A stretch of DNA of 64,000 bases from the NCBI RefSeq assembly GCF_055900595.2, contig NZ_CM148325.1, one strand, 5' to 3'. Position numbers and translations under genes: made by a program. The notes beneath the pieces were generated by a model that made no database searches, had not been told where the DNA came from, and was given only the letters and a program-made list of their open reading frames with translations. Of the stretch, positions 9,661-17,001 are shown piece after piece (position 1 is the stretch's first letter; the number at the start of each line of letters is the position of its first letter).

Positions 9661-11547
9661 TTACTCTTCCATCGCCTGGCGGATCTGATCCAACGACGCA
9701 GGATCATCAATAGTCGTCAGATCTCCCGGATCGCGTCCTTCACAAATCGCCTGGATCGTGCGGCGCAGCATTTTTCCGGATCGCGTTTTCGGTAATTGCG
9801 AGACAAACCAGACGTGCGCCGGGCGACCAAAGTTGCCAATCTGGCTGTCTACCAGCGCCATAATCGCCTTCTCTTGCGAGTGCGCCACCTCACGGTCTTC
9901 AAGACTGTCGCTTTCTTTCGGAATGACAAACGCCACCGCCACCTGCCCTTTCAGCGCATCTTTCACCCCAACCACCGCCACTTCAGCAACGTCCGGATGA
10001 CTGGAGATACTCTCTTCAATCTCGCGTGTGCCAAGCCGATGCCCGGCAACATTAATCACATCGTCAGTGCGCCCGAGAATAAAGTGATAACCGTCAGCAT
10101 CGCGGATGCCCCAGTCAAAGGTGGCGTACACCGGACGGGAAAACAGCGACCAGTACGTCTTCACAAAACGGTCGTCGTCGCCCCAGATGGTCTGAATACA
10201 GCCCGGCGGCAATGGCCCTTCCACCACCAACATCCCTTTCTCATTGACGCCGCACGGTTCGCCGGTGACTTCATTGAGCAACTGCACGTTGTATCCATAC
10301 ATCGGCACGCCGGGGCTTCCCAGACGTGTCGGCCTGTCGTCCAGACCGCGAGCAATCGCCATAATCGGCCAGCCGGATTCGGTCTGCCAGTAGTTGTCGA
10401 TGACCGGCACATCCAGCGTATTGCTCACCCAACTGGCAGTCGGCTCATCCAGCGGTTCTCCCGCCAGATAGAGCACTTCCAGCGACGAGAGATCGTGTTT
10501 GCGAATTTCAGCGGTAGGGAATTTTTTCAGCACGCGGATGGCGGTCGGCGCTGAGAACATCCGGCTCACCTGATATTTCTCGACGATTTTCCACCACACA
10601 CCGCAGTCAGGATAAGTCGGCAATCCTTCGTAAACGATAGTCGCCATCCCCGCCAGCAGCGGCGCGTAGACGATATACGAATGCCCAACTACCCAGCCGA
10701 TATCCGACGCACAGAAGAACACACCGCCCGCTTTACCGCCAAAAATGGTGTCCATTGAGGTCGCCAGCGCCACCGCATAACCGCCGACGTCACGCTGTAC
10801 ACCTTTTGGTTTGCCGGTCGTGCCGGAGGTGTAGAGAATGCAGGAGGTTTCGTTGGATTCCAGCCACGCCACCGGTACCCGCGCACCGATGTGTTGATGG
10901 CGCAACGACGCGAAATCGACATCCCGCCCGCTGACGCGCGCCATTTTCGCCAGCCCGCGATCCACCAGCAAAACATGGCGCGGTTGATGCTGCGCCTGGC
11001 TTATCGCATCGTCGAGCAATTTTTTATAGGGAATGATTTTGCCACCGCGCGCTCCGGCATCTGCCGAGACAATCAGCACCGGTTTAGCGTCATCAATCCG
11101 CGCAGCCACGCTGTGCGAGGCAAATCCACCAAACACTACCGAGTGAATAGCGCCAATGCGCGCGCAGGCCAGCAGGGTAATATGCGCTTCGGCAATCATC
11201 GGCATATACACCAGCACCCGATCGCCACGCCGTACGCCCAGTGAGCGCAGCATTGACGCCACCGCGTTCACTTCGTCATGCAACTGGCGAAAGGTAAAGA
11301 TGCGCTCTTCTTCTGTTTCCGAAGAGACGGCAATTAATGCCAGCGCCTCTGGCTGTTTCTCCAGCCAGCGGTCGATGGCGTTGTGGCACAAATTGGTTCG
11401 GCCTTCACAAAACCAACGGGCAAACGGCGGATTGCTGTGATCGAGCGTTTGCGTAAAGGGCGTCTGCCAGTCAATACGCCGGGCCTGCTCGGCCCAGAAT
11501 TGCTCCGGTTCGTTAATCGAACGCTGATAAAATTCGCTAAAAGACAT
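9661..11547 (-). CDS. prpE: propionyl-CoA synthetase (acyl-CoA synthetase family), 628 aa
   Basis: 628-aa AMP-forming acyl-CoA synthetase (YTSGTTGKPKG motif); last gene of prpBCDE. Confidence 0.94.
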   Translation of the reverse strand: MSFSEFYQRSINEPEQFWAEQARRIDWQTPFTQTLDHSNPPFARWFCEGRTNLCHNAIDRWLEKQPEALALIAVSSETEEERIFTFRQLHDEVNAVASMLRSLGVRRGDRVLVYMPMIAEAHITLLACARIGAIHSVVFGGFASHSVAARIDDAKPVLIVSADAGARGGKIIPYKKLLDDAISQAQHQPRHVLLVDRGLAKMARVSGRDVDFASLRHQHIGARVPVAWLESNETSCILYTSGTTGKPKGVQRDVGGYAVALATSMDTIFGGKAGGVFFCASDIGWVVGHSYIVYAPLLAGMATIVYEGLPTYPDCGVWWKIVEKYQVSRMFSAPTAIRVLKKFPTAEIRKHDLSSLEVLYLAGEPLDEPTASWVSNTLDVPVIDNYWQTESGWPIMAIARGLDDRPTRLGSPGVPMYGYNVQLLNEVTGEPCGVNEKGMLVVEGPLPPGCIQTIWGDDDRFVKTYWSLFSRPVYATFDWGIRDADGYHFILGRTDDVINVAGHRLGTREIEESISSHPDVAEVAVVGVKDALKGQVAVAFVIPKESDSLEDREVAHSQEKAIMALVDSQIGNFGRPAHVWFVSQLPKTRSGKMLRRTIQAICEGRDPGDLTTIDDPASLDQIRQAMEE

Positions 11548-11586: not shown

Positions 11587-13038
11587 TTAAATGACGTACA
11601 GGTCGAGATACTCATTGACCGGCATCTGTTCCAGGCGAGCTCTGTCGAGAGAAACCTCCAGAATGCGCTGCTGTTGGCGAGTCGGGAACTGGCGCGCGAG
11701 ATTGATTTTGAATTTATCCACCAGTTTTGGAATACCATCCTGACGGCGGCGAGCATGACCAATTGGGTACTCCACCACCACTTCTTCAAATCGCGTGCCG
11801 TCGGTGAACTCAAGGGTTATGGCATTGGCGATGGCGCGTTTTTCCGGGTCGTGGTAGTCAGCGGTAAATGCCGGATCTTCAAAGCAATTGATCTTCTCGC
11901 GCAGGGCGTCGATGCGTTTATCTTGCGCAACGTTGTCTTCGTAATCTGCCGCCGTTAAGCGCCCGAATAACAGCGGGATCGCCACCATGTACTGAATGCA
12001 GTGGTCGCGGTCAGCCGGGTTATTGAGCGGCCCTTTTTTGTCGATGATGCGAATACAGGCTTCGTGGGTGCGAATGGTCACTTTTTCGATATCCGCCGCC
12101 GTTTTGCCTGCTGCCTGCATCTGTTCATAGAGCGTCATCGCCGCTTCAACTGCCGTCTGAGAGTGGAACTCCGCCGGGAAGGAGATTTTGAACAGCACAT
12201 TCTCCATGACGTAAGAACCGTACGGACGCTGGAAGCGGAACGATTCACCTTTAAAGGAGACGTCGTAGAAGCCCCATACCGGCGCGGTCAGGGCTGACGG
12301 GTAACCCATTTCGCCCGTTTTCGCCATCAGTGCCAGACGTACCGCGCGGGACGTGGCATCGCCCGCCGCCCAGGATTTACGCGTGCCGGTGTTCGGCGCA
12401 TGGCGATAGGTGCGCAGCGACTGACCGTCCACCCACGCCAGCGAAACAGCGTTGAGAATTTCCTCGCGGGTCAGGCCAAGCATTTCGGCGACCACGGCGG
12501 TGGAAGCCACTTTCACTAACAGAACGTGGTCGAGGCCAACGCGGTTAAAGGAGTTTTCCAGCGCGATGCAGCCCTGAATTTCATGGGCTTTGATCATTCC
12601 GGTTAGCACCTGTTTCATGGTCAACGGCGCTTTGCCGCTGGCGACCGCGTTGCGCGAAAGCCAGTCCGCCGTTGCCAGAATGCCGCCGAGGTTGTCGGAA
12701 GGATGGCCCCACTCCGCCGCCAGCCAGGTATCGTTGAAATCGAGCCAGCGGATCATCGCGCCAATGTTAAATGCCGCCTGGACGGGGTCGAGCTGGAACT
12801 GAGTTCCGGGAACGCGCACGCCGTTAGGTACGACGATGCCAGGAACAATTGGCCCCAGCAGTTTTTTACAGGCCGGGTATTCGAGAGCTTCAAGACCGCA
12901 GCCGAGGGTGTCGAGCAGGCAGTAATGTGCGGTGTCGTAGGCTACTTTGGAGCTAATTTCGTAGTTCATGACGTAATCGACAATATCAATAATTTCGCGG
13001 TCGAATTCCGGGCGGATGTTGTTGATTTGAGCTGACAT
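11587..13038 (-). CDS. prpD: 2-methylcitrate dehydratase, 483 aa
   Basis: 483-aa [26 protein letters not shown]...; MmgE/PrpD family; operon position. Confidence 0.94.
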
Positions 13039-13071: not shown

Positions 13072-14241
13072 TTACTGGCGCTTATCCAGCGCGACAAACT
13101 GGCGGTCTTCAGGGCCAACATAATTGGCGGAAGGACGGATAATTTTGTTGTCCTGACGTTGTTCGATAATGTGCGCCGCCCAGCCGGTGACGCGGGCGAT
13201 AACAAACAGTGGCGTGAACATCTCGGTGGGAACGCCCATCATGTTGTAGGAAACAGCGGAGAACCAGTCGAGATTGGGAAACATTTTTTTGCTCTCCCAC
13301 ATCACCGTTTCCAGGCGATCGGCGATGTTGTACATCTTCAGCGAGCCGCCTTCCTGCGAGAGCTGCTTCGCCACACGTTTGATCACCTGATGACGCGGGT
13401 CGGCGATGGTATAAACCGGATGGCCAAAACCAATCACCACTTCTTTGTTTTCAACCCGCTTGCGGATATCGGCTTCGGCTTCGTCCGGCGTTTCGTAGCG
13501 TTGCTGGATCTCCAGCGACACTTCATTCGCCCCGCCGTGCTTCGGCCCGCGCAGTGCACCAATCGCGCCAATAATCGCGGAATACATATCAGAGCCGGTG
13601 CCCGCAATCACCCGGCTGGTAAAGGTGGAGGCGTTAAACTCGTGTTCGGCGTACAGCACCAGCGAAATATGCATCGCCTTTTCCCAGCTTTGCGACGGCT
13701 TTTCGCCATGCAGCAGATGCAGGAAGTGACCGCCGATGGAATCGTCATCGGTTTCCGGCTGGATGCGTTCGCCGTTGTGGCTGTAGTGATACCAGTAGAG
13801 AAGAATCGAGCTCAGCGACGCTAATAATTTGTCGGCAATATCCCGCGCGCCAGAGACGGTATGCCCCTCTTTTTCTGGCAGCGTGCAGCCGAGCGCGGAA
13901 ACGCCGGTGCGCATGACATCCATCGGATGCGACGCCGCTGGTAAGGCTTCCAGCACGGTACGCACGTTAGCCGGTAAACCGCGCAGGGCTTTCAGTTTTG
14001 TTTTGTAGGCGGCGAGTTCGTCACGGGTCGGCAGTTTGCCGTGGATCAGCAGATGCGCCACTTCTTCAAATTCGCAATGTTCCGCCAGGTCAAGAATATC
14101 GTAGCCGCGGTAATGCAGGTCATTGCCACTTTTACCCACGGTGCAGAGCGCCGTATTGCCCGCCGGAACGCCAGAAAGTGCCACAGATTTTTTCGGTTTA
14201 ATGACATGGGTACTGTTTTGCAGGATCGTTGTGTCGCTCAT
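13072..14241 (-). CDS. prpC: 2-methylcitrate synthase, 389 aa
   Basis: Citrate synthase family [56 protein letters not shown]... Confidence 0.94.
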
Positions 14242-14285: not shown

Positions 14286-15176
14286 TTATTTCGTCTGGCT
14301 ACGGGCAAACAGGTCGTCGAGCTTTTCTTCGTACTGGTAGTAGTTAATGCTTTCATACAGCTCGTTGCGGGTCTGCATGGTGTCGATGACGCTTTTCTGC
14401 GTGCCTTCCTGGCGCAGGACGTTGTAGACATGTTCAGCGGCGCGGTTCATTGCGCGGAAAGCAGAAAGGGGATACAGCGCCATTGCGACATGGGCGCTGC
14501 GTAATTCGTCGGTGGTAAACAGCGGCGTGGCACCAAATTCAGTAATGTTGGCAAGGATCGGCACCTGCACCGCATCGGCAAACTGGCGGTACATGGCGAG
14601 TTCGGTAATTGCTTCCGGGAACAACATCTCGGCACCCGCTTCAACATAGGCCTGCGCACGCTCGATCGCCGCATCCAGCCCCTCTACCGCCAGCGCATCG
14701 GTGCGCGCCATGATCACAAAATCAGGATCGGTTTTCGCATCCACCGCCGCGCGGATCCGATCCACCATCTCTTCTTTCGAGACGATCGCTTTGTTCGGGC
14801 GATGACCGCAGCGTTTTGCTCCAACCTGATCTTCAATATGTAAGCCCGCCGCACCGGCTTTAATCATCGATTTCACGGTGCGGGCAACGTTAAAGGCCGA
14901 AGAGCCAAAACCGATATCCGCATCCACCAGCAGCGGCAGCGAGCAGACGTCGGTGATACGACGAATATCAGTCAACACATCATCAAGAGTAGAAATACCG
15001 AGATCCGGCAACCCCAGCGAACCTGCCGCCACACCACCGCCGGAGAGATAAATCGCCTGATATCCGGCACGCTGCGCCAGCAGCGCATGGTTGGCGTTAA
15101 TGGTGCCGACAATCTGCAATGGATTTTCTTTAGACAGTGCAGCGCGAAACGCTTTACCTGGAGAGTGTAGAGACAT
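14286..15176 (-). CDS. prpB: 2-methylisocitrate lyase, 296 aa
   Basis: Isocitrate lyase/PEP mutase family ORF; first gene of the prp operon, downstream of a sigma54 promoter. Confidence 0.94.
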
Positions 15177-15223
15177 AGCCCATCCTTTGTTATCAACTTG
15201 TTATTTACGTTGATAAACTCAAA

Positions 15224-15239
15224 GCAAGGGGTGTGCCAC
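15224..15239 (-). promoter_or_regulatory. sigma54 (-24/-12) promoter of prpBCDE
   Basis: Minus strand reads TGGCAC-ACCCC-TTGC-TTT, matching TGGCAC-N5-TTGCW; about 48 nt upstream of the prpB ATG; divergent sigma54 activator prpR adjacent. Confidence 0.8.
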
Positions 15240-15312
15240 AATTACCTGGATGAAATTAAATGTTATATTTCAATTTGTTATAGATAAAGCCATGAAGTAA
15301 TCCGCAAATATG

Positions 15313-15371
15313 CGTTTCAGTTAACGTTTCAGGCAATGTTTCACTGCGTTTCATTGCAACAATTATGAAAC
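15313..15371. promoter_or_regulatory. Putative PrpR enhancer (UAS): phased GTTTCA repeats ending in a GTTTCAT-N10-ATGAAAC palindrome
   Basis: Four (C/T)GTTTCA copies at about 12-bp spacing; 7-bp inverted repeat at about 15348..15371; lies 75-150 bp upstream of the sigma54 promoter. Confidence 0.55.
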
Positions 15372-15414
15372 AAGACTAAACCCAATATTCGGTTTCTTAA
15401 CTTTGCGGTGCGCT

Positions 15415-17001
15415 ATGGCACATCCACCACGGCTGAATGACGACAAACCGGTTATCTGGACGGTATCTGTAACGCGGCTGTTCGAGCTGTTTCGCGATAT
15501 CAGTCTCGAGTTTGATCACCTGGCGAATATCACCCCTATTCAGCTTGGCTTTGAAAAAGCGGTGACCTACATCCGCAAAAAACTGGCCAGCGAACGCTGC
15601 GACGCCATCATTGCCGCTGGCTCTAACGGTGCGTACCTGAAAAGCCGCCTGTCGGTACCGGTGATTCTGATAAAACCGAGTGGCTACGATGTGTTACAGG
15701 CGCTGGCAAAAGCCGGAAAACTCACCTCTTCTATCGGCGTTGTCACCTATCAGGAAACCATTCCGGCACTGGTAGCGTTTCAAAAAACCTTTAATTTGCG
15801 CCTCGACCAACGTAGCTACATTACCGAAGAAGACGCACGCGGGCAGATTAACGAGCTAAAAGCTAACGGCACCGAAGCGGTGGTCGGTGCGGGGCTGATT
15901 ACCGATCTGGCAGAAGAAGCCGGAATGACCGGAATTTTTATTTATTCCGCCGCCACCGTGCGCCAGGCGTTCAGCGATGCGCTGGATATGACGCGCATGT
16001 CGTTACGCCATAACACTCACGATGCCACCCGCAACGCCCTGCGTACTCGTTACGTGCTGGGCGATATGCTCGGTCAATCACCACAGATGGAACAGGTACG
16101 GCAGACTATTTTGCTGTATGCCCGCTCCAGTGCGGCGGTGTTGATTGAAGGGGAAACGGGGACGGGCAAAGAGCTGGCGGCCCAGGCGATTCATCGGGAA
16201 TATTTTGCCCGCCACGATGCGCGACAGGGCAAAAAGTCGCATCCGTTTGTTGCCGTCAACTGCGGGGCGATTGCTGAATCTCTGCTGGAAGCGGAGCTGT
16301 TTGGCTATGAGGAAGGAGCGTTTACCGGCTCGCGACGCGGAGGACGCGCCGGGCTGTTTGAAATCGCCCACGGTGGCACGCTGTTTCTTGACGAGATAGG
16401 CGAAATGCCGCTGCCGTTGCAGACCCGGCTACTGCGGGTGCTGGAAGAAAAAGAGGTCACTCGCGTCGGCGGGCATCAGCCTGTTCCGGTGGATGTGCGG
16501 GTTATTAGCGCCACTCACTGCAATCTCGAAGAGGATATGCAGCAAGGGCGTTTTCGCCGTGATCTGTTTTATCGACTGAGTATTTTGCGTCTGCAATTGC
16601 CGCCGCTACGCGAGCGGGTGGCGGATATTCTGCCGCTGGCGGAAAGCTTTTTGAAAGTGTCACTGGCGGCACTTACTGCGCCTTTTTCTTCCGCGTTACG
16701 TCAGGGATTACAGGCAAGTGAAACTGTGCTATTGCGCTACAACTGGCCGGGAAATATTCGTGAACTGCGCAATATGATGGAACGACTGGCGCTATTTTTA
16801 AGTGTGGAACCAACGCCGGATTTAACGCCGCAATTTTTGCAGTTGCTACTGCCGGAACTGGCGCGCGAGTCGGAGGAAACTCCCGCTCCACGTTTACTGA
16901 CGCCACAACAGGCACTGGAGAAATTTAATGGCGATAAAACTGCCGCGGCCAATTATTTAGGTATCAGCCGAACGACATTCTGGCGGCGGCTGAAAAACTG
17001 A
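15415..17001 (+). CDS. prpR: sigma54-dependent transcriptional activator of the prp operon, 528 aa
   Basis: AAA+ sigma54-interaction domain ([13 protein letters not shown] motifs) and C-terminal HTH; ATG at 15415 ([15 protein letters not shown]) inside ORF 15403..17001. Confidence 0.93.

Follow-up and report, generated by a model that had tools for sequence, protein, structure and literature searches.

How is prpBCDE switched on from the short gap that separates it from prpR, the divergent gene of its activator, and in what form does that activator meet its binding sites there? The question is raised by a window of 64,000 nucleotides of E. coli (RefSeq assembly GCF_055900595.2, contig NZ_CM148325.1), whose coordinates are used throughout, and in which a first-pass annotation had read a sigma-54 promoter of prpB preceded by phased GTTTCA enhancer repeats.

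The prpR–prpBCDE locus and its sigma-54 promoter

The repeats lie within the 238-bp gap between the divergent E. coli prpR and prpBCDE, which has the same length in K-12 MG1655. Several E. coli chromosomes share the 401 bp around them at 100% identity, and RefSeq names the genes on either side prpR and prpB. All flanking prp genes are NCBIfam equivalog matches far above cutoff; PrpR scores 1008 bits against NF011953 (cutoff 703) and 886 bits against TIGR02329. The genes and the ribosome-binding site are as follows.

9661–11547: prpE, prpBCDE operon, downstream of prpB (open reading frame list and NCBIfam)
11587–13038: prpD, prpBCDE operon, downstream of prpB (open reading frame list and NCBIfam)
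13072–14241: prpC, prpBCDE operon, downstream of prpB (open reading frame list and NCBIfam)
14286–15176, minus strand: prpB, methylisocitrate lyase, first gene of prpBCDE (open reading frame list; NCBIfam equivalogs NF008455/TIGR02317, 561 bits against a cutoff of 353)
15183–15187, minus strand: Shine-Dalgarno sequence AAGGA, 6 nt 5′ of the prpB ATG (read from the sequence)
15415–17001, plus strand: prpR, sigma-54-dependent activator with a PrpR_N sensor, an AAA+ domain and a C-terminal HTH_8 (NCBIfam NF011953)

Alignment of the gap from ten enteric genera resolves it into three conserved islands, namely the enhancer, the promoter and the leader, with unalignable DNA between them; the AGGA of the prpB Shine-Dalgarno sequence is unchanged in the ten enterics. 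The alignment of seven Escherichia sequences is invariant at the hexamers, at the sigma-54 element and at the leader repeat, and the differences fall mostly in alignment columns 121–176, which represent the AT-rich spacer. As a side observation on the activator, the annotation of E. coli O18 (NZ_CP007275.1) lists prpR as a pseudogene interrupted by an internal stop, and many of the database's PrpR proteins from E. coli (P0078–P0120) are shortened to 423–457 residues and devoid of the HTH domain.

Two features define the promoter.

15238–15224, minus strand: sigma-54 −24/−12 element TGGCACaccccTTGC (equal to TGGCACACCCCTTGC), an exact match to TGGCAC-N5-TTGC
15212, minus strand: predicted prpB transcription start, 12 nt past the C of the −12 GC, placing the ATG at +37 (sigma-54 consensus register)

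A near-consensus −24/−12 element had been proposed 48 nt upstream of prpB. The element is indeed present at that distance, with 48 nt from the terminal C of the −12 GC (15224) to the A of the prpB ATG (15176), and it is exact rather than near-consensus, representing the sole zero-mismatch match to TGGCAC-N5-TTGC in the 64 kb. Its identity is further supported by published occupancy data. The 17-mer GTGGCACACCCCTTGCT of the window is identical to the motif of K-12 sigma-54 ChIP-seq peak OS01, which was assigned to prpB at a distance of 36 to the gene (PMC4591121 Table 1), in a table where the EcoCyc status of this promoter is given as ‘P’ (predicted). A genomic SELEX peak of the RpoN holoenzyme has also been reported in the prpR–prpB spacer (PMC8743547). 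For Salmonella, a ChIP-chip site TGGCATAGCCTTTGCTTT and a 45-fold rpoN-dependent expression of prpBCDE have been described (PMC3844500); TGGCATAGCCTTTGCTTT is likewise present in the Salmonella locus fetched here, where it is homologous to the E. coli −24/−12 element. With the C of the GC taken as −12, position +1 falls at 15212 and the ATG becomes +37, in agreement with the ‘distance 36’ of the ChIP-seq table (PMC4591121), and prpB transcription is thus predicted to begin near 15212, 36 nt 5′ of the ATG.

The arrangement extends well beyond E. coli. TGGCAY-N5-TTGC is found 46–52 nt 5′ of the prpB ATG, with the ATG at +30 to +40, in 17 of 17 prpR–prpB intergenic sequences drawn from 16 genomes and 15 species (the window, K-12 and 14 fetched loci), which span enterics, Photorhabdus, three beta-proteobacteria and one Xanthomonas.

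The enhancer as an array of PrpR half-sites

The DNase I footprint of Salmonella PrpR was reportedly obtained by Palacios & Escalante-Semerena in 2004. As quoted in a review table that cites a Salmonella footprint, the PrpR enhancer consensus is the 14-mer CGTTTCATGAAACG (PMC4987338 Table 1). GTTTCA is the half-site of this sequence, and the E. coli gap contains it in the following array.

15313–15372, no strand assigned: PrpR enhancer (UAS), the whole half-site array, −102 to −159 from the predicted start (hexamer scan, repeats and conservation)
15314–15319, plus strand: half-site 1, promoter-proximal, offset 52; TGAAAC in prpB orientation, TGACAC in other enterics
15326–15331, plus strand: half-site 2, offset 40; its Salmonella homologue is the right half of the palindrome CGTTTCA|TGAAACG
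15338–15343, plus strand: half-site 3, offset 28; specific to the Escherichia/C. rodentium type
15348–15353, plus strand: half-site 4, offset 18; inner arm of the distal dyad
15355–15360, minus strand: degenerate half-site GTTGCA, offset 11; invariant in enterics
15366–15371, minus strand: half-site 5, offset 0; outer arm of the distal dyad, nearest prpR, GTTTCA in prpB orientation

All four of the GTTTCA repeats that had been noticed at about one-helical-turn spacing were recovered, with starts at 15314, 15326, 15338 and 15348 on the plus strand and start-to-start distances of 12, 12 and 10 bp, and a fifth, inverted copy was found at 15366–15371. Read in prpB orientation, the array is GTTTCA-N12-TGAAAC-N4-TGAAAC-N6-TGAAAC-N6-TGAAAC, and the half-site in the form (C/T)GTTTCA occurs in it five times. 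The 7-bp palindrome in which the repeats had been said to end exists as the inverted pair GTTTCAT (15348–15354) and ATGAAAC (15365–15371), but its arms are 10 bp apart rather than contiguous. The position given, 110–150 bp upstream, is approximate only, since the array measures −102 to −159 from the predicted start, 90–147 bp from the −12 element and 138–195 bp from the prpB ATG. Half-site 4 is exact in nine of ten enterics, with TAAAAC in Kluyvera; together with GTTGCA it forms the imperfect palindrome GTTGCAaTGAAAC, at whose place Photorhabdus carries the perfect GTTTCATGAAAC.

Between this enhancer and the prpR start codon lies a near-palindrome, AAACCCAATATTCGGTTT (15378–15395), of which only the GGGTTTAG side is kept in other enterics.

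Whether such a cluster might arise by chance in AT-rich intergenic DNA, or represent a functionless remnant of local tandem duplication, can be judged from its statistics and its conservation. The window's overall count of GTTTCA/TGAAAC hexamers, 40, equals that of shuffled sequence, and five of the 40 are packed into 58 bp (15314–15371). The largest cluster in 300 whole-window shuffles contained three hexamers, and five were reached in none of 20,000 composition-matched shuffles of the intergenic region alone (Poisson expectation about 2e-6). Duplication could be suspected from the common flanks of neighbouring units (CGTTTCAGTTAA/CGTTTCAGGCAA and GTTTCACTGC/GTTTCATTGC). Against both origins, the hexamers show no variation within E. 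coli, unlike the bases of the spacer, and the motif recurs at orthologous loci of distant genera; these conservation data effectively refute a chance or duplication origin, whose probability is considered negligible.

The full 14-mer CGTTTCATGAAACG behaves differently from its half-site. No exact copy exists in the window and none with fewer than three mismatches in the intergenic region, where the best versions (three mismatches each, at 15313–15326 and 15325–15338) are individually no better than chance. Position and half-site thus assign the E. coli enhancer to the same system, yet it fails a strict test for the consensus palindrome. The unit is the half-site Y-GTTTCA-T, present in both orientations, and the palindrome itself is absent in E. 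coli; accordingly, the occupancy of E. coli half-sites rests on homology, and binding of PrpR to each individual one of them is presumed from sequence.

The homology in question is provided by Salmonella, whose array in prpB orientation reads GTTTCA-N12-TGAAAC-N10-cGTTTCATGAAACg-N6-TGACAC and holds the published 14-mer CGTTTCATGAAACG verbatim. Counted from the distal hexamer, the offsets 0, 18, 40 and 52, together with the degenerate GTTGCA at 11, are common to E. coli and Salmonella. Arrays of the Salmonella type are found in C. koseri, C. amalonaticus, C. werkmanii and Pluralibacter, and an array of the E. coli type in C. rodentium. In E. albertii (locus L001:2900–2960), the offset-28 half-site is changed from TGAAAC to TGAAAT, which suggests that the extra Escherichia-specific site is dispensable or weakly selected.

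For a wider comparison, orthologous loci were gathered by a PrpR genome scan, two protein searches and exact-protein look-ups; the genome scan was dominated by generic AAA+ proteins and contributed about 14 true orthologues, Salmonella and other enterics being obtained from the protein searches and look-ups. With a cluster defined as at least three exact hexamers within 70 bp, clusters were found directly upstream of prpR at 16 of 21 PrpR-orthologue loci, from gamma- to beta-proteobacteria, as compared with six clusters in 432 kb around 66 non-orthologous sigma-54 activator genes, which served as control. An Oxalobacteraceae genome carries GTTTCAcGTTTCAatgTGAAAC-N4-TGAAAC-N4-TGAAAC-N5-TGAAAC, which corresponds to a phasing of 10–11 bp. 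From 66 pooled half-sites the extended consensus Y-GTTTCA-T was derived, and the commonest spacings were 18 (forward–reverse), 12 and 10 (reverse–reverse) and 6 (abutting palindrome); the original description of a spacing near one helical turn is a fair one. The C-terminal HTH of PrpR (LGISRTTxWRRLK) is conserved out to beta-proteobacteria and Xanthomonas, which would be consistent with a half-site left unchanged over the same phylogenetic span. Two loci from Janthinobacterium (L004 and L007) encode full-length PrpR orthologues of 59–60% identity in another locus organisation; neither has prpB within 3 kb or a cluster of exact hexamers upstream. Clusters of GTTTCA/TGAAAC (up to five in 70 bp) also occur near non-orthologous activators in a Spirochaete MAG (L022:4796) and a Desulfobacteraceae MAG (L078:2271–2465 and 3940), and these activators may be PrpR-family paralogues with the same DNA specificity.

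Within the species, 5215 of 5216 E. coli records reach 95% identity or more to the window over the 70 bp that span the array, and the UAS stands out as a conserved island in the ten-genus alignment. Across about 5,200 E. coli genomes, the UAS is more strongly constrained than the adjacent spacer.

A further reading holds that the array is mainly the operator of another protein, such as CRP or a Cra-like factor, or the core of a sigma-70 promoter of prpR, rather than a PrpR enhancer. A Cra-type palindrome, TGAAAC|GTTTCA, is a permutation of the same half-sites. The Cra-like reading of TGAAACGTTAAC was rejected, as it matches 9 of 12 positions of the Cra-type consensus, an agreement that chance alone would produce dozens of times in 64 kb. 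For CRP, published accounts state that a CRP site overlaps the PrpR operator, and its mutation abolished PrpR regulation (PMC9452892), and a single CRP site is listed for prpR–prpBCDE, although the region was not recovered by CRP genomic SELEX (PMC3105977). A weighted scan for TGTGA-N6-TCACA returned weak matches, the best cores agreeing at 6–7 of 10 positions. The top match lies over the prpR start codon and the second, at 15308–15329 (6 of 10 core positions), overlaps the UAS; both are unconvincing.

As to the prpR promoter, the array lies only 44–100 bp from the prpR ATG and must therefore overlap that promoter, which fits the annotation of PrpR as a dual regulator; the prpR–prpB region must also carry this divergent promoter. 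A scan of 15100–15500 for sigma-70 promoters and terminators found none. TTGCAA-N17-TAAACC occurs at 15354–15382, inside the distal PrpR dyad, and TTGCAA-N17-TAAAAC in Salmonella and C. koseri. This sequence is a candidate prpR promoter, whose −10 hexamer is without the usual final T and was not called by the consensus scan; its conservation as TTGCAA-N17-TAAAMC inside and next to the distal dyad speaks for a promoter function there. Nevertheless, the hexamer is the half-site of the footprint-derived PrpR consensus, and the cluster accompanies PrpR orthologues as far as beta-proteobacteria, in which the DNA around it bears no relation to that of E. coli. Overlapping extra functions at the array are therefore likely, and an exclusive alternative to PrpR is not; that the array serves mainly another protein or the prpR promoter is regarded as highly improbable.

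The spacer, IHF-like sites and the leader repeat

Promoter and enhancer are joined by DNA of a different character, and a second repeated element lies on the other side of the promoter.

15239–15312, no strand assigned: AT-rich, fast-evolving spacer from promoter to enhancer (alignments)
15268–15280, plus strand: IHF-like site TTTCAATTTGTTA, one mismatch to WATCAANNNNTTR, at about −56 to −68 (consensus scan)
15190–15216, no strand assigned: leader inverted repeat, TTATCAAC (15190–15197), N11 and GTTGATAA (15209–15216), 8/8 complementary

About 50% of the spacer columns are invariant within Escherichia, and the spacer is unalignable between genera. The window's version of 15239–15308 is a rare allele: among 5220 E. 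coli records, 12 reach 95% identity or more to it, and 4977 lie at 80–90%.

Expression of prpBCDE requires IHF (PMC5566544). The site at 15268–15280 is a plausible place for it: all nine specified positions are invariant in the seven Escherichia sequences and two of the four N positions vary, and the site is unalignable in other genera. Its use by IHF is suggested by this pattern and by its position. The sole exact IHF core match in the prpR–prpB region, TATCAACTTGTTA at 15191–15203 on the plus strand, lies downstream of the promoter and includes the promoter-distal arm of the leader repeat; it is one of four exact matches to WATCAANNNNTTR in the 64 kb. Two copies of TCAAnTTGTTAT, at 15191–15203 and 15270–15281, are located 77 bp apart on either side of the sigma-54 promoter.

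The leader repeat had been described as ttatcaac-N11-gttgataa; it is real and fully complementary, with coordinates one base off from those first assigned (15190–15216). It is kept in eight of ten enterics and absent from Salmonella and C. rodentium. Two functions may be envisaged for it, either as a 5′-terminal hairpin of the prpB mRNA that stabilises the transcript or tunes its translation, or as a site in the DNA, across +1, to which IHF or some other protein binds, and a function of this kind is considered possible, though doubtful. A hairpin is favoured by the perfect 8-bp complementary arms, which are retained in most of these enterics while the loop varies. However, the predicted start at 15212 falls inside the first arm, and a repeat that straddles the start is probably not a transcribed hairpin; the fold predicted for the RNA is weak and not significantly stable (−6.8 kcal/mol, z = −1.75), and it is no longer formed by a transcript that begins at 15212. 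The arms also display no compensatory change among the ten enterics, a G-to-A change in Pluralibacter breaks one of them, and the absence of the repeat from Salmonella and C. rodentium weighs in the same direction. A scan of 15000–15600 against Rfam gave one sub-threshold match only, to the eukaryotic element HLE, which was rejected as chance given its 23.9 bits against a gathering score of 60.

The DNA-site version draws on the exact IHF core in the repeat, on the fact that C. rodentium retains the exact IHF consensus there despite losing the other arm, and on the 92% direct repeat that the element forms with the upstream IHF-like site. On the other side, a position downstream of a sigma-54 promoter gives it no role in enhancer looping, and the element abuts the ribosome-binding site, which could explain the conservation.

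Related systems and a model for activation

The closest relative is the prpR–prpBCDE locus of Salmonella enterica, which has the same genes in the same divergent layout, with the GC of the sigma-54 element 47–48 nt 5′ of the ATG as in E. coli. It shares the UAS block, with half-sites at 0, 11 (degenerate), 18, 40 and 52, as well as the requirement for PrpR, sigma-54 and IHF and the 2-methylcitrate signal (PMC4987338, PMC5566544, PMC3844500). The two differ at the promoter-proximal end. Salmonella alone has the perfect palindrome CGTTTCATGAAACG, composed of the half-sites at 34 and 40, and TGACAC at offset 52. In E. coli, attgcc at 34 takes the place of the left half, TGAAAC is added at 28 and a perfect TGAAAC is present at 52, so that four of the five exact half-sites point in the same direction. 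The UAS is also about 25 bp nearer the promoter in E. coli than in Salmonella (−107 versus −132/−144), and E. coli carries the leader inverted repeat that Salmonella lacks. In prpBp of E. coli K-12 (EcoCyc/RegulonDB; PMC4591121, PMC8743547), neither the sigma-54 motif nor any half-site nor the leader repeat differs from the window. Identity to K-12 is about 94.5% over the whole spacer region and 80–90% over 15239–15308, with no functional element affected.

The wider layout recalls other sigma-54 systems. NtrC at glnAp2 and NifA at nifH act from sigma-54 enhancers through IHF-assisted looping. As in prp, their sites lie 100–160 bp upstream of the −24/−12 element with a bendable AT-rich or IHF segment between, and the activators, like PrpR, are AAA+ proteins with a Fis-type C-terminal HTH. 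PrpR differs from the NtrC type in its GTTTCA half-sites, in place of TGCACC-N5-GGTGCA, and in its ligand-binding PrpR_N sensor, in place of a phosphorylated receiver. At norVW, a three-site NorR enhancer with three inverted repeats GT-N7-AC was reportedly described by Tucker et al. in 2010. NorR resembles PrpR in that a ligand-sensing activator is presumed to form its active oligomer on several sites placed close together, but its sites are inverted repeats, whereas the E. coli PrpR array consists mostly of direct repeats of one half-site.

Taken together, the region is, with high confidence, the divergent prpR–prpBCDE control region of E. coli, comprising a sigma-54 promoter and a probably IHF-assisted enhancer of PrpR half-sites. 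The original reading of a prpB sigma-54 promoter with a PrpR enhancer is thereby upheld by gene identities, by the identity of the ChIP-seq motif and by the homology of the half-sites to Salmonella; neither a start in conflict with the −12 element nor PrpR footprints elsewhere were encountered. That the elements are present, non-random and conserved, and that they correspond in position to the Salmonella block holding the footprint-derived consensus, are direct observations, to which the literature adds sigma-54 occupancy, the need for PrpR, IHF and CRP, and 2-methylcitrate as signal.

A sequence of events may be proposed on this basis, in which the standard scheme of enhancer-dependent activation is the best supported. 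Briefly, sigma-54 RNA polymerase would wait as a closed complex on TGGCAC-N5-TTGC (15238–15224), and PrpR activated by 2-methylcitrate would oligomerise on the array of Y-GTTTCA-T half-sites 100–160 bp upstream (15313–15372), where a distance of 10–12 bp between half-sites places them on one face of the helix. IHF would bend the AT-rich spacer, probably at 15268–15280, and bring the AAA+ ring of PrpR onto sigma-54, after which ATP hydrolysis by PrpR would open the promoter and transcription would begin near 15212. The same array would also overlap the divergent prpR promoter.

Much of this is already known, as publications cover the sigma-54 promoter of prpBCDE, the motif bound by PrpR and the need of the promoter for PrpR, IHF and CRP. 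Only mildly new is the observation that the half-sites of E. coli form a same-sense array and that the palindrome commonly cited for PrpR is missing there. It allows a more tentative proposal, which is less likely than not: PrpR may read single Y-GTTTCA-T half-sites, in either orientation and in a 10–12-bp register, rather than a palindrome; Escherichia and C. rodentium may have rewired the promoter-proximal forward–reverse palindrome into a direct array of four reverse half-sites with function kept; and the IHF-consensus element at +1 to +25 could be a second, downstream architectural or repressive site.

In practice, the PprpB cassette serves in propionate biosensors and in the pPro expression vectors, whose combination of PprpB and prpR reportedly goes back to Lee & Keasling in 2005. 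The added value of the present analysis is modest and comparative, and it should be useful for the engineering of PprpB and for the annotation of PrpR regulons. If the proposal is true, the rewiring of half-sites could underlie the reported three-fold weaker, less leaky PprpB of E. coli as compared with that of Salmonella.
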